The notes beneath the pieces are model-generated. The model was not told the DNA's origin. It did not search any database and was given only the letters and a program-made list of their open reading frames with translations. From positions 87,544,001 through 87,608,000 of the forward strand of contig OX597823.1 of assembly GCA_951406725.2 (NCBI GenBank): 64,000 nt of DNA, in the 5' to 3' direction. The translations under genes were made by a program, and so were the position numbers. Of this stretch, positions 2,046-58,776 are shown piece by piece; positions within the stretch are counted from its first letter, which is position 1, and each line of letters starts with the position of its first letter. This stretch comes from Octopus vulgaris. Taxonomy: Eukaryota.

Positions 2046-2133
2046 ATGCAGTAGATCGTTTCATGCAATTCCATTTAATTGAACAATGCAATCATGACAT
2101 CAATTTAAAATGTAGAGCAATCTTCAGCTGCAC
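2046..2133 (-). ncRNA. type I hammerhead ribozyme motif
   Basis: Minus strand GUGCAG-CUGAAGA-UUGC...GCAU-GAAA-CGAUC-UA-CUGCAU; 6-bp stem I, long stem II, near-palindromic stem III. Confidence 0.75.
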
Positions 2134-2571
2134 AAACACATAGAATTTAATTAAATTAGAACACATGGACACATTAGTATTATTATACCTAAAATCTCGA
2201 AGAAGTTAAGGAGATGGATAAAGAACAGGTTGTACCTACAACACCATAGTTGTAAGAACAATTTTCAAGGAGACACTGCCTGTCACTGATCTTTTTTTTT
2301 ATGTGGTCACTTTTAATTTATAGACTAGTTTATCAAATCCCTTGTATATTTAAGGTTGAGAGAAACAGAGGGCCGCATTTTTTTGGGGTAGATTTGAGGG
2401 AGTAGACAGACATTCTAGATAGTATAGTCATAAAAATCAAGATTTGTTAGAGGCAAAAATATATAGGGTAGCGAATAATTATCAATTAACATCTTGTTTT
2501 AAGATTTCCCTTACTATACATACATATATATTTTTTTTCTCTCCTTCTTTCTGTGTTTTTTTCTCTGTGTA

Positions 2572-2609
2572 TCTTTCTGTTCAAGAGCGTAGGCTCGAAA
2601 CGTTAAAGA
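2572..2609 (+). ncRNA. minimal hammerhead-like motif with non-canonical core
   Basis: UCUUU-CUGUUCA-A-GAGC(GUAG)GCUC-GAAACGUU-AAAGA; stems I and II perfect, core differs from CUGANGA. Confidence 0.6.
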
Positions 2610-2736
2610 CTTGTTTTAATTATATTTCCTGAGCGTCATACTAATACAATTGTTTGTTTGTATTCCACCTGCCTTCGTCTTTTGTTTATTTCCGTAAACC
2701 TGCCTTCGTCTTTTGTCTATTTTCATAAAACTTCCC

Positions 2737-2807
2737 TATATATATATATATATATATATATATATATATATATATATATATATATATATATATATATATA
2801 TATATAT
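2737..2807. repeat. (TA)n microsatellite
   Basis: Perfect TA array. Confidence 0.98.
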
Positions 2808-2809
2808 GA

Positions 2810-3563
2810 GGTGGTTTAGTAAGGGAAATCTTAAAACAAGATGTTAATTGATAATTAAGGAGTTGCCCATTAGCAGACTTATAAAAATGAAACAGGGGAA
2901 TTCTTATCATGTAGTATTATAGTTAAATACTTTAAAACAATGTTGCTATGTTGTTGAAGTTTAGGGTTATTCAAAGGATTATTAAGAAGAATATTGTAAC
3001 AAAAGGATAGACATTTATGAATACTTGAGTATATATAAAACTTTTACCACAATAGAGGGAGGAAAAGAAATTATATAGAAATAGTTTAATATCTATACAT
3101 ATTGTACACTTAAATACAAGCTCATCAGATGGTATCTGTGAATATTGATTAAATGATATTTATAATTAGCATGTTCTTTTCCCTCAATACTCTTTTATTA
3201 ATACCAGTAAATACCATTTAATCAATATTCACAGATACCATCTGATGAGTTAGTATTTAAGTATACAATATGTATAAATATTAAACTATTTCTATATAAT
3301 TTCTTTTCCTCCCTCTATTGTGGTAAAAGTTTGATATATACACATACGTATTCATAAACTTCTATCCTTTTGTTACAATATTCTTCTTAAAAATCTCTTG
3401 AGTAATCCTAAGCTTCAACAATATATCAACATTGTTTTAAAGTATTTAACTATACTACTGCATGATAAGACTTCCCCTGTTTCATTTTCATTAATCTGCT
3501 AATGGGCAACTCCTTAATCATCAGTTAACATCTTGTTTTAAGATTTCCCTTAGTAAACCACCA
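2810..3563. mobile_element. foldback element with ~355-bp inverted arms carrying mirrored hammerhead motifs
   Basis: 2810-3163 is the reverse complement of 3207-3563 with scattered mismatches; ~45-bp spacer; (TA)n on both sides. Confidence 0.9.
3462..3531 (-). ncRNA. type I hammerhead motif in right arm of the foldback
   Basis: AUGUUAA-CUGAUGA-...-GAAA-C(AGGGGAA)GUC-UUAUCAU; stem I 6/7, GUC triplet, imperfect stem II; mirror copy at 2841-2910 (+) has core mutated to UUGAUAA. Confidence 0.55.
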
Positions 3564-3653
3564 CTGATATATATATAGGGTAGCGAATATTTTTAGAAAT
3601 ATCACTTCCAGTGGCCTAGCATGTATAAAAAGTCAATAGACAAAATATTCCCC

Positions 3654-55412: not shown

Positions 55413-56075
55413 TCATCGTCGTCATCATCATCATCATCATCTTCATCATCATCATCATCATCATCATCATCATCATCATCATCATCATCATCATCATCAT
55501 CATCATCACCATCACCATCAGCACCGCCGCCACCAAGACCACCACCAGCATTCTCCTCCACCTCTTCCCCCCATTCTCCCCACCATCATCACCATCATTA
55601 TCATCCTGATCTTCATCGTCTTGTGATGTTAATCATTGTGAAAAGGATGTGACGGTTTAGGATGATGATGATGATCGTTGTTGTTATCATCATCATCGGC
55701 CTGAACATAATCTTAATAATAATCATTCCTAACGCCATTGTAGTAATCTACATCATCATGATCATCATCACCCTTATCAAAAGGTTCTACCACTTTCATA
55801 TTTATCGTCCATTCGCGAAACACCCACATCAACTATATGAATGACGTCATCACCATAATCATCACCTCCGTCATCATCATCATCCCTTTCCTCCTCCCCT
55901 TCCTCATCATCCTTTCATCGTCACACTAACCATCATCCCATCACCCTAATTGCAAACGTCGTTGTCATCACCATCATCATCATCATCGTCGTCGTCGTCA
56001 TCATCATCATCATCTTCATCACCATTATCATCATCATCATCACCATCAACTGCATCTTCAAAATGACCATCATCA
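55413..56075. repeat. (CAT)n-rich microsatellite and low-complexity region
   Basis: Direct reading. Confidence 0.88.
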
Positions 56076-56224
56076 TAGATATTTATCTTAATAACCTTTC
56101 TGTATACGTGTGTGTGTTTGTGTGTGTATGCGTGTGCGTGTGTGTTTGGGTGTGAGTGTCATGTTTGCTTGTGTCAAGGAATGTGGAGCAGTCGTGATCG
56201 TGCGAGTTACAATAACAACGGGAC

Positions 56225-56375
56225 CGGCGTAGCTCCATGGTAAGGAATTTGCTTCCCCACCGCACAGTTCCGGGTCCAGTCCCACTGTGTGACGCCTTGG
56301 CAAGTGTCTTGAACATTAGCCACGGGCCCACCATGTCAATGGATTTGGGAACAGAAACGAAACGGAGTCCGTGGT
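56225..56375 (+). mobile_element. degraded SINE family B head
   Basis: GTTCCGGGTCCAGTCCCACTG..CCTTGGCAAGTGTCTT. Confidence 0.75.
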
Positions 56376-56838
56376 GCGCGTGTATGCATACATACATACA
56401 TGCATACATACATACATACATACATACATACATACATACATTATATATGTATGTATGTATTATGTATATATGTATGTATATATAAACCTTCGAACACACA
56501 ATCAACAGCGACGCCTGCTGGGTTTGCCTATTCTAAATTGATAAAGGGCAAATAACCTGAAATTAGTCTCTGGAAGTCTTAACCAGCATGGGGAAACTGA
56601 TGGCCTCCCCTGTTTGAAGGTTGTAAAGGACGCAGTTTTGTGTGTCACTTAGCTAGCTAGAGGCGATGGCCTCTTGGACCTAATCGACGGCAGCATTCCT
56701 GCTATTTTTCTGGACTGCAATGTTAGGTTGACGATATTAATACCCACTTCTGCTGCCGTAGTGTTTTAAAGGGAGATTTATAAATAATAATAATAATAAT
56801 AATAATAATAATAATAATAATAATAATAATAATAATAA

Positions 56839-58397
56839 AGGGGTAATTGAAGGGGACGGAATAAGGCATTCAGAGATGAAGGAAAGGATCAGGAGAGAAT
56901 GTTATCGAAGAGTGAGAGCAATACTTAAGACAGAGCTGAATGTAAGAAACAAATCGAAGCGATCAATGCATTAGCCATACCAGTCGTGACTTACAGTTTC
57001 AATATCATTAACTGGTCAATTACTGAAATATGTCAGCTTGACAGAAAAATACGAAAACTGTTGACAATGCATAGAATGCACCATCCTAAGGCGGATACAG
57101 AACGAATTTATCTGCCAAGAAAAGAGGGAGGCCGTGGTCTTTTACAACTGGCAATAACAATGAAGATTGCTACAATTGGCCTAGACACCTACCAGAAAAA
57201 GTCTGAGAACTGGATGTTAAAACTTGTCTCAAAACATGAAAACAAGAAAGCATCATACTCAGTAACAAAACAGGCAAAGGAATATCTAAGTGAATTCTGA
57301 ATACAACAAATTTCGGAATTAGAGATAGACATACAAGAAACAAGCACAGAAAAAGCTAAGCGCATGAAAACCCGTGCTAAAACTGCGGCCTTAGATATTC
57401 TGAATGATAAATGGCAAGAAAAAACTCTCTATGGAAAATACCCAAAGAGAGCGAATAATGCAGATATTGACAAAGCCCTGACTCATCAATGGCTAATGGC
57501 CTCTGGCTTAAAATCTGAAACAGTGGGGTTTATCATAGCAGCTGAAGATCAATGCCTACCAACAAGAAACTACCTGGCCAACATATTAAAGAACGGCAGT
57601 AGCCCAACATGTCGTGTATGTCGACAACAAAATGAAACCATTGATCATGTTGTATCCAAGTGCAGTCTTCTAGCGCCTACAGAGTATCTCAACAGGCATG
57701 ATAGAGCTGCACAATATATTCACTGGGTAATTTGCAAAAACCTGGATTTGCCCCATGAAAAAAACTGGTGCTTGAAAATGACCACATCTCACTCCTCTGG
57801 AACTTCACCATTCAAACTGACAGAAAGATAGATGCAAATACGCCAGACATCATATTGAAAGACTTCAGACAAAGAACAGCCTCCTCATTGATATAACTGT
57901 CCCAATTGACATAAACGTATCTGTCAAGAACTACCAAAAACTGAGCAAATATAAAGATCTTGAAATAGAAATCAGCAAAATGTGGAACCTGAAGACTAAA
58001 ACAATACCTGTTGTCATAAGTGCTCTGGGAATGATACCGAAAGGAGCTGATTGCTACCTAACTCAGATACCAGGAAACTCCAAAATGGCAGAAATTCAAA
58101 AGATAGTGCAAATGGGAACTGTTCATATCCTACGCAAAATACTTTCTATGTAATCTCAAGGTTTAAAACAAACAATTTTTATTTTTTATTTTATTTATTT
58201 ATTTTTTAAAATTTATTTATTTATTTTTTATTTACTTATTTATTTAGTAGACATTCCCTAGTACGACGCACAAAAAAAACAAATATATGGCACACTTGGC
58301 ATAACAACAACGTGAACTTCTAACCTGTTGTCTCTTGAGGTCTCTGGGTGAGACTTGGAGCCAACTTGTACCAATATAAAGCAAAAGTCAAACATAG
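56839..58397 (+). mobile_element. 5'-truncated R4/Dong-clade non-LTR retrotransposon
   Basis: AINALAIPVVTYSF, MHHPKADTERIYLPRKEGGRGL, LYGKY, GLKSETVGFIIAAEDQ, CRVC..ETIDHVVSKC, RHD, PDII, KYKDL; stop at 58153; (TAA)n on both sides. Confidence 0.95.
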
Positions 58398-58698
58398 AAT
58401 AATAATAATAATAATACTATTGAATAATATATATATATATATATATATGTATATGTGTGTGTGTGTATGTATACAAACATACACACAAATACACACATAT
58501 ATATACATATACACACATGATATATATATATATATATATGTGTGTGTGTGTGTGTGTATAAATGCATATATTATACACGTATGAGAGGAAAACCACTATG
58601 TGGACACCCTTATACTAGAAATAGATCCGCTATGGTCTTACCACTAAGACATGTTCTCAAGAAAAATCAGCCAAATGTAACCAAAACATAATCGAGCA

Positions 58699-58776
58699 AG
58701 GCAAAAGGAATGTTTCTCTATCACCATATTACGTAATTTAACTTACGCAAGATGTCCGTAGATCTTCAGTGTGACC
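58699..58776 (-). ncRNA. degenerate type I hammerhead motif
   Basis: GGUCACA-CUGAAGA-UCUA...UUGCGUAA/UUACGUAA...UAGA-GAAAC; stem I 3' strand and cleavage site decayed. Confidence 0.5.

Follow-up and report, generated by a model that had tools for sequence, protein, structure and literature searches.

Hammerhead motifs in a 64-kb window of the Octopus vulgaris genome and the Penelope-like elements and retrozyme-like units that very probably carry them

What kind of element could bring ten hammerhead ribozyme motifs into a single 64-kb stretch of DNA? The stretch in question (64,000 nucleotides of Octopus vulgaris, contig OX597823.1, positions 87,544,001 to 87,608,000, hereafter the window) had been described from its letters alone, in what is termed here the sequence-only reading, as holding ten unrelated type I motifs on non-autonomous retroelements. 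Computational analysis of the window and of the genome indicates that it very probably contains decayed 3'-terminal repeats (pseudo-long terminal repeats, pLTRs) of at least eight families of Penelope-like elements (PLEs) that bear open reading frames (ORFs), together with copies of three likely PLE-dependent retrozyme units, each family with a type I hammerhead motif. One of these families, 18251, has in addition a tRNA-like module at the start of its pLTR.

Hammerhead families and their reading frames

The 2.8-Gb genome was searched with each of the ten motifs and with a further motif at 19529, and a repeat family was found behind every one of them (390-2581 first-look candidates per family, as lower bounds); families are named here by the position of their motif in the window. 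Consensi were built by aligning the 20-30 best loci of each family, ranked by likeness to the window copy. For nine of the ten motifs the consensi restored the core, stem II, a self-complementary stem III and stem I, and in ten of the eleven consensi all three stems were found to pair in type I order, with differing stem sequences. That the motifs are type I hammerheads of the Penelope type, with a stem III that can pair with itself, was borne out, and the positions given by the sequence-only reading, which are the low end of each motif, were roughly right. Its description of the motifs as unrelated in sequence is not entirely correct, and does not apply to 2572 and 17668, whose consensi are 70% identical (with one G-C to C-G swap in stem I), nor for 3803 and 58699, which have a 34-nt block in common.

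The consensus core is canonical in 2046, 3803, 18251, 19529, 43093 and 48365 (13-20 of 20-25 copies each), whereas in five families most copies have a variant core (U4C, A6U or U3-A8). Stem III of the consensi reads ACGU in 18251, 17668 and 2572, ACAUGU in 58699, ACGAUCGU in 2046, ACCUAGGU in 3803, ACAGCUGU in 43093, AUAUGGCAUAU in 48365, ACUCAGAGU in 31690 and ACUCGGAGU in 19529. Stem II is 58 nt long and branched in 2046, 42 nt long in 3803 and of 7 bp in 43093, with the 31690 hammerhead having a stem II of 2 bp with a GCAA loop. Among the window copies, cores of CUGUUCA (2572), CCGACGA (17668), CCGAUGA (31690) and UUGAUGA (18251) were identified; the 58699 copy has a 30-nt deletion that takes the 3' side of stem III, the UH site and stem I, the 2046 copy is without one base of stem III, and stem I of the 48365 copy is damaged. 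Identity was higher at core columns (0.976) than at the flanks (0.940), which was not used as evidence because the samples were ranked by similarity and the flanks include homopolymers. Nine of the ten motifs are thus worn copies of predicted type I hammerheads carried on abundant repeats.

The tenth, at 3462 (3462..3531, - strand), was rejected as an independent ribozyme. The core of its family is CUGAUAA in 13 of 20 copies and canonical in one, the window copy; there is a C3/A8 mismatch, the pair that would close stem II is missing, and only 4 of 11 positions of stem III are self-paired. It is situated antisense approximately 450 nt upstream of the 2046 hammerhead within the same element, and is an antisense look-alike that matches by chance.

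In longer copies of 2046, 2572, 17668, 18251, 31690, 43093, 19529 and 30671, the hammerhead was found downstream of a sense PLE frame for reverse transcriptase (RT) or GIY-YIG endonuclease (EN), with RT and EN upstream in 2046, 2572, 17668, 18251, 31690 and 19529, and EN alone in 43093 and 30671. By protein motif, 2572 and 17668 can be categorized as Neptune-type, 2046, 31690, 43093 and 19529 as Hydra-type, and 18251 as Penelope/Poseidon-type.

Family 2046 occupies 1932..3185 (- strand) as the 5'-truncated 3' region of a Hydra-type PLE, split by the 2572 insertion, with its type I hammerhead at 2047..2132 (-) and an inverted 5' arm at approximately 3215-3577 that contains the 3462 look-alike. 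The hammerhead was found downstream in 8 of 12 EN-selected loci taken from the top of 44 matches. In locus L306 (G000:C13:19501500-19507500, - strand), RT and EN are followed by a 3.4-kb 3' untranslated region (UTR) of internal repeats (roughly 430/870 nt). An asparagine/aspartate-rich insert was also observed between RT and EN of this locus, resembling the N-rich inserts described for rotifer PLEs (PMC3846280).

The 3' end of the Neptune-type family 2572 lies at 2528..2735 (+), with the hammerhead-like motif at 2572-2609. A sense EN was identified upstream in 5 of 20 loci, and loci L309 and L310 encode an RT with DKG, a CX4CxxC linker and GIY-YIG. The second Neptune-type family, 17668 (17598..17802, +), has a minimal U4C hammerhead at 17668-17702; the end of an EN was found in one of 15 extended loci, with RT and EN in L454 (46-70% identity to the 2572 protein) and part of an RT in L455.

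Among the Hydra-type families, the 3' end of 31690 lies at 31685..31835 (+), with a U4C hammerhead at 31694-31731. An EN was found in 2 of 25 loci, and RT plus EN in all three extended loci, with DKT and CxCx5C. In locus L457 hammerhead-bearing pLTRs stand in direct orientation 5' and 3' of the ORF, and an inverted pLTR arrangement was identified in L456, in L458 and, for family 18251, in L580. The 3' end of 43093 (42989..43264, -) contains a near-intact hammerhead at 43093-43140; of 19 other EN-selected loci, nine were found to have the hammerhead and eight more the UTR (17 of 19 with either). Family 19529 is present as a back-to-back pair of PLE ends (19354..19625), with hammerheads at approximately 19432-19492 (-) and 19524-19591 (+); an EN was found in 3 of 20 loci, and RT plus EN in L459. 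The linker motif CxCx5C is shared by 2046, 43093 and 19529. Taken together, 2046, 2572, 17668, 18251, 31690 and 43093 are 5'-truncated 3' ends of RT and GIY-YIG PLEs.

The tRNA-like module of family 18251

Family 18251 is represented in the window by a truncated pLTR of a Penelope/Poseidon-type PLE at 18080..18350 (+), comprising the 3' part of a tRNA-like module (about 18080-18112, +), an internal (TAA)n tract and a decayed minimal hammerhead (18259-18300, +). The association with (TAA)n suggested by the sequence-only reading does not stand here, the tract being internal to the element and not its target. The protein consists of RT and EN, with DKG and no linker finger, and the hammerhead was found downstream in 19 of 25 EN-selected loci. 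In these elements the stop codon is followed, after approximately 35 nt, by a module of 74 nt in which A and B boxes were identified, and then by (TAA)n and the hammerhead. In the near full-length locus L580 the tail continues into the ORF, and the unit of module, hammerhead and tail is therefore a pLTR. Other elements were observed to be inserted in the (TAA)n of loci L386, L387, L393, L403 and L488, parting the module from the hammerhead.

The A and B boxes are intact in the consensi of both 18251 subfamilies, each of which includes ORF-bearing copies, and a hammerhead was found within 600 nt of the module in 24 of 30 module-selected loci. Compared with the genome's tRNA-Arg(ACG), 48 of the 74 bases of the module are identical, with a score of 67 where shuffled sequence reached 37 at most; the pattern used in the search had been modelled on this tRNA, and the comparison covers the tRNA-Arg(ACG) isotype alone. 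ARAGORN with default settings called no tRNA in 25 loci of the family, and at an 85% threshold called the consensus of subfamily b only. Rfam returned nothing at E<=1 for two of the tRNA-like heads. A cluster of approximately 17 tRNA-Arg(ACG)-type matches, several of them about 206 nt apart, was noted elsewhere in the genome (G000:C2:211887712-211969213).

The 5' ends of the family were surveyed in 60 copies drawn from the first 62 matches listed, with one copy kept per back-to-back pair. Twenty-two ended short of the module, eight inside it and 22 within -20..+4 of its first base, with the remaining eight ending further upstream, spread over about 740 nt. Of the 30 copies that reach the start of the module, 22 therefore begin within -20..+4 of its first base. 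This hotspot likely marks the 5' end of the template RNA, and its cause could be initiation by RNA polymerase III (Pol III), processing by RNase P, a start of RNA polymerase II (Pol II) at the edge of the pLTR, or fold-back at a native hairpin.

A tentative proposal, which falls somewhat short of an even balance, is that 18251 would be a protein-coding Penelope/Poseidon-type PLE whose terminal repeat begins with a captured Pol III promoter derived from tRNA-Arg, shedding thousands of copies of 250-300 nt made up of tRNA head and hammerhead. Such copies would constitute a short interspersed nuclear element (SINE) born from and mobilised by a PLE and not by a long interspersed nuclear element (LINE). 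A free-standing SINE had been considered for this family and was dropped once longer copies showed an ORF; the head was not found to be independent of its partner, the same module being present in 21 of 25 EN-selected, ORF-bearing copies.

It is rather doubtful that the short copies of 18251 are a true SINE, with Pol III transcribing solo copies from their A and B boxes and the parent PLE moving them in trans. The intact boxes of both subfamily consensi, the likeness of the module to tRNA-Arg(ACG), the clustering of 5' ends at its first base and the frequent presence of a hammerhead beside selected heads would all agree with this. However, the module is shared with ORF-bearing copies, these fall within both subfamilies, and the tail of L580 enters the ORF, so that the short copies may instead represent run-off cDNAs, copied from a full-length RNA at its 5' pLTR. 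Furthermore, a native GCCC-AC-GGGC hairpin at the start point could cause fold-back stops, and the module went uncalled by ARAGORN at default and by Rfam.

Retrozyme-like units, insertion and chance

For three families no PLE frame was found in the copies examined. A copy of the approximately 450-nt retrozyme-like unit of family 3803 lies at 3590..4100 (-), with an intact hammerhead at 3801-3875 and an inverted tail piece at about 4030-4100. The approximately 415-nt unit of 48365 is present at 48248..49002 (+), with a decayed hammerhead at 48366-48417 and a short inverted 5' piece, and is interrupted by another repeat at about 48509-48949. For 58699, a copy of an approximately 540-nt unit lies at 58566..58890 (-) and retains a hammerhead remnant at 58709-58774. 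The sequence after the hammerhead enters the family's own 5' region in 25 of 25 copies of 3803, 20 of 20 of 58699 (many of whose head-to-tail matches run through one long copy) and 7-8 of 20 of 48365. Dimers were identified at a spacing of 445-464 nt for 3803 and 412-420 nt for 48365. No sense EN was found upstream in the 20-25 copies examined for each of the three families, which fit non-LTR (LTR, long terminal repeat) retrozymes and are likely to be PLE-dependent.

In the sequence-only reading, all ten motifs belonged to independent non-autonomous ribozyme families, to be moved in trans by PLEs of which the GIY-YIG remnant at 31050-31515 was named as an example. The window copies are indeed short (140-430 nt) and do not code for protein, head-to-tail closure with no ORF was observed in three families, and (TA)n is the usual 3' terminus; a non-autonomous nature fits 3803, 48365 and 58699. 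In six of the nine families, however, independent copies were seen to extend upstream into an RT/EN frame of the family itself, and these families are therefore not non-autonomous, but truncated ends of ORF-bearing PLEs, and 3462 is no separate element. For these six families the proposal is largely refuted, and as an account of all ten motifs it is very unlikely.

The remnant itself belongs to a separate PLE that is Hydra-like, of which a decayed GIY-YIG end and the 3' UTR are present (30525..31515, -). It carries its own hammerhead at ~30606-30674 (-), in which the core is U3-A8 and stem II is long, and which matches the motif 30671(-). At least 150 scored matches to this family were found in the genome, and the U3-A8 hammerhead is clear in about 10 of 30 loci. 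It was rejected as the source of 31690, as the two differ in strand, the remnant has a 3' end (near 30525) and a hammerhead of its own, and it encodes an EN only 44% identical to that of 31690; the 31690 element stands beside none of 29 other copies. Of 20 lower-ranked EN matches from the search with this remnant, none had a window hammerhead family downstream.

Copy coverage in these families declines stepwise towards the 5' end, whereas the 3' boundary is abrupt. An inverted copy within 700 nt upstream was found in 15 of 25 copies of 31690, 15 of 20 of 19529, 14 of 25 of 18251, 6 of 20 of 48365 and 4 of 20 of 2046, and was rarer in 3803 (3 of 25), 43093 (3 of 25), 58699 (3 of 20), 17668 (1 of 30) and 2572 (0 of 20). 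Optional 3' tails are visible in 2046, 43093, 19529 and 18251. Such insertion features have been reported for PLEs (PMC4209133, PMC8557442, PMC3846280). A (TA)5 tract was found at the 3' end in eight families (27/30, 19/20, 21/25, 13/20, 15/25, 15/20, 17/20 and 17/25), a share of 60-95% against 10-32% (2-8 copies) in control windows. The association with (TA)n that had been proposed therefore applies to these eight, and not to 18251 (0/25) or 48365 (1/20). The linker finger has been associated with (TA)n targeting (PMC8557442), and the pattern across families agrees with that link. At loci L012, L025, L079 and L162, ends of different hammerhead families were observed to adjoin at (TA)n tracts, and in the window 2572 sits inside the 2046 element in a parallel manner; such adjoining ends probably reflect shared targets.

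From PLE biology, the endonuclease would nick (TA)n-rich target DNA, upon which the RT would prime close to the 3' end of the pLTR, where two internal sites are available to it (PMC11167929), usually stopping early and often switching template to leave an inverted piece. As the hammerhead lies within approximately 50-250 nt of that end, it would be retained by short copies in their thousands. Two motifs of a tandem transcript would be able to cleave as a dimer through their self-complementary stem III, an ability that many of the window copies have probably lost, and by analogy with a related element described below cleavage is probably not needed for insertion.

A number of points weigh against the interpretation of the window as PLE ends and PLE-dependent units. 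Several consensus cores fall outside the canonical one, with CUGUUGA (A6U) in 18 of 20 copies of 2572 and U4C in 26 of 30 copies of 17668, 13 + 4 of 25 of 31690 and 8 or more of 20 of 58699 (the few CUGA copies in these U4C families may be due to CpG decay), and the 30671 family has the U3-A8 core. The consensi lean towards the subfamily of the window copy, since the samples are the best matches to that copy. The link of 17668 to an ORF comes from two of the 15 loci examined, the clade calls rest on the motifs of PMC8557442 (DKT/DKG and linker) and not on an RT tree, and Pfam support for the endonucleases is weak (GIY-YIG E ~0.01, below cut-off). Stops or frameshifts occur in all of the ORF-bearing long copies read, with no intact master among them. 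Moreover, with 20-25 copies examined for each, 3803, 48365 and 58699 may have an ORF-bearing parent PLE.

The window has approximately 35% G+C with microsatellites throughout, and 39 CUGANGA matches. A strict descriptor (CUGANGA with stems I-III) gave two matches (3868- and 43136-), against a mean of 0.03 and a maximum of one in 60 local dinucleotide shuffles; when YUGA/CCGA cores were admitted, three matches were found against 0.07 in shuffles. A decay-tolerant type I descriptor gave four (17672+, 31698+, 43136- and 3868-), against a mean of 0.125 and a maximum of one in 40 shuffles, and none in the reversed window. The density above shuffled sequence that the sequence-only reading had named as a check was thus observed, and nine of its ten hammerheads hold by family consensus, with four of the ten passing the decay-tolerant descriptor as window copies. 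Nine of the eleven family consensi pass it, those missed being 3462 and 18251, the latter with a stem I of 3 bp. There is thus a real excess over chance, yet six of the ten window copies are not intact. The other check it named, a search with the Rfam hammerhead model, gave no hammerhead family among the 150 of 163 window matches listed, and Rfam returned nothing at gathering level for six family loci. An explanation of the motifs by coincidental CUGANGA/GAAA matches, in DNA that is rich in repeats and in A+T, is refuted except for 3462 and altogether extremely improbable: the two strict passes out of 39 matches and the Rfam result would fit it, but not the excess over shuffles, the restoration of three stems with different sequences in ten of eleven families, the 2043 exact genome copies of the intact 18251 core pattern against none of the reversed pattern, or the fixed position near PLE 3' ends.

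The list of ten motifs was also incomplete, in that it missed the inverted pair 19487(-)/19529(+), 30671(-) and a weaker candidate at 15447(+). The last is a decayed hammerhead-like motif of an old low-copy family (15438..15490, +), of which six matches in all were found; its core and stem II are kept and are common to five distant genome matches (74-83%). A look at the CUGANGA match at 9447 found nothing. Two-copy tandem repeats were identified at 43721-44010 (147-nt period) and 52926-53310 (184-nt period). Decayed C-terminal parts of a non-LTR retrotransposon, presumably of Dong/R4 type, lie beside (TAA)n at 24965-25848 and 56929-58153 (+), with zf-RVT at E 1e-5.

Relation to known elements

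Minimal type I hammerheads have been described in the pLTRs of metazoan PLEs by Cervera and de la Pena (2014; PMC4209133), and those of the window share with them the type I topology, an unpaired base between positions 9 and 10.1, a palindromic stem III and a U3-A8 covariant. Also shared are the many heterogeneous families per genome, mostly present as single motifs of truncated PLEs, and the opposite-strand pairs 100-700 bp apart. Relative to the passages of that paper that were compared, the families here differ in their 42-58-nt stem II (2046, 3803, 58699 and 30671), their 6-11-nt self-complementary stem III and the predominance of U4C/A6U cores in four families. Dimeric cleavage of PLE hammerheads in vitro is reported there to be weak. 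Elsewhere, U3-A8 is given as an active covariant and changes at A6 as leading to low activity (PMC3088659).

With the EN+ PLE clades of Craig et al. (2021; PMC8557442) the elements share a C-terminal GIY-YIG, an optional 3' tail and inverted 5' copies. The motifs described for those clades were likewise found, namely DKT with CxCx5C (31690), CxCx5C (2046, 43093 and 19529), DKG with CX4CxxC (2572) and DKG without a linker finger (18251), together with an insertion at (TA)n that is confined to the clades with a linker and does not extend to 18251. The 3' UTRs are very long in comparison (about 1.3-3.4 kb), with internal repeats in 2046. The green anole element Poseidon_Ac has been described as having two internal sites of RT initiation (Frangieh et al. 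2024; PMC11167929), which by analogy would explain the optional tail of 2046, 43093, 19529 and 18251. Hammerhead mutants of that element left insertion in vitro unaffected, and cleavage needed protein. Such dispensable cleavage would fit the existence of high-copy families with non-canonical cores, such as the A6U family 2572.

The three units without an ORF resemble published retrozymes (PMC7229834; bioRxiv 10.64898/2026.07.22.740005) in being non-coding and AT-rich, with a type I hammerhead, a head-to-tail arrangement, monomers and dimers, and co-occurring PLEs. They differ in their unit length of 415-540 nt and in being mostly dispersed monomers, with no long arrays in the 20-25 copies of each family. 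Derivation of non-LTR retrozymes from PLE pLTRs has been argued for by Li, Clavereau and Pollet (bioRxiv 10.64898/2026.07.22.740005), who found that only one of nine dimers tested cleaved. This kind of element is thus already in print (PMC4209133, PMC7229834, bioRxiv 10.64898/2026.07.22.740005). The octopus repeat-annotation paper PMC13282606 lists Penelope families, and the word 'ribozyme' was not found in its available text.

The pLTR of 18251 and the schistosome SM-alpha/Sj-alpha elements (PMC6765202) are alike in being short repeats in which a Pol III-type promoter, putative in 18251, is followed by a hammerhead. In 18251, as known from sequence, the module is in contrast common to the short copies and to an ORF-bearing PLE, where it stands approximately 35 nt past the stop codon. 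No title on a tRNA-derived module within a PLE, or on a SINE mobilised by one, was found in literature searches, which missed most subscription papers and Repbase, and the main text of PMC11167929 contains no tRNA or Pol III term. The tRNA-like module at the start of the 18251 pLTR is unusual, the remainder being mostly ordinary and of known kinds.

Thousands of heterogeneous type I hammerheads in PLE-rich animal genomes are a published pattern, of which the window is one instance. As the hammerhead ends of about eleven families were found within 64 kb and were not among the Rfam matches listed, such motifs can mark truncated PLE ends for annotation. The families also provide a ready-made set for comparing what the hammerhead may do in PLEs, with the young family 2572 (best copies 97-98% identical, at least 1683 candidates) having spread with an A6U core. 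If the module of 18251 were a working Pol III promoter, this family would be a PLE that uses a tRNA promoter and would represent a route from a PLE to a SINE.

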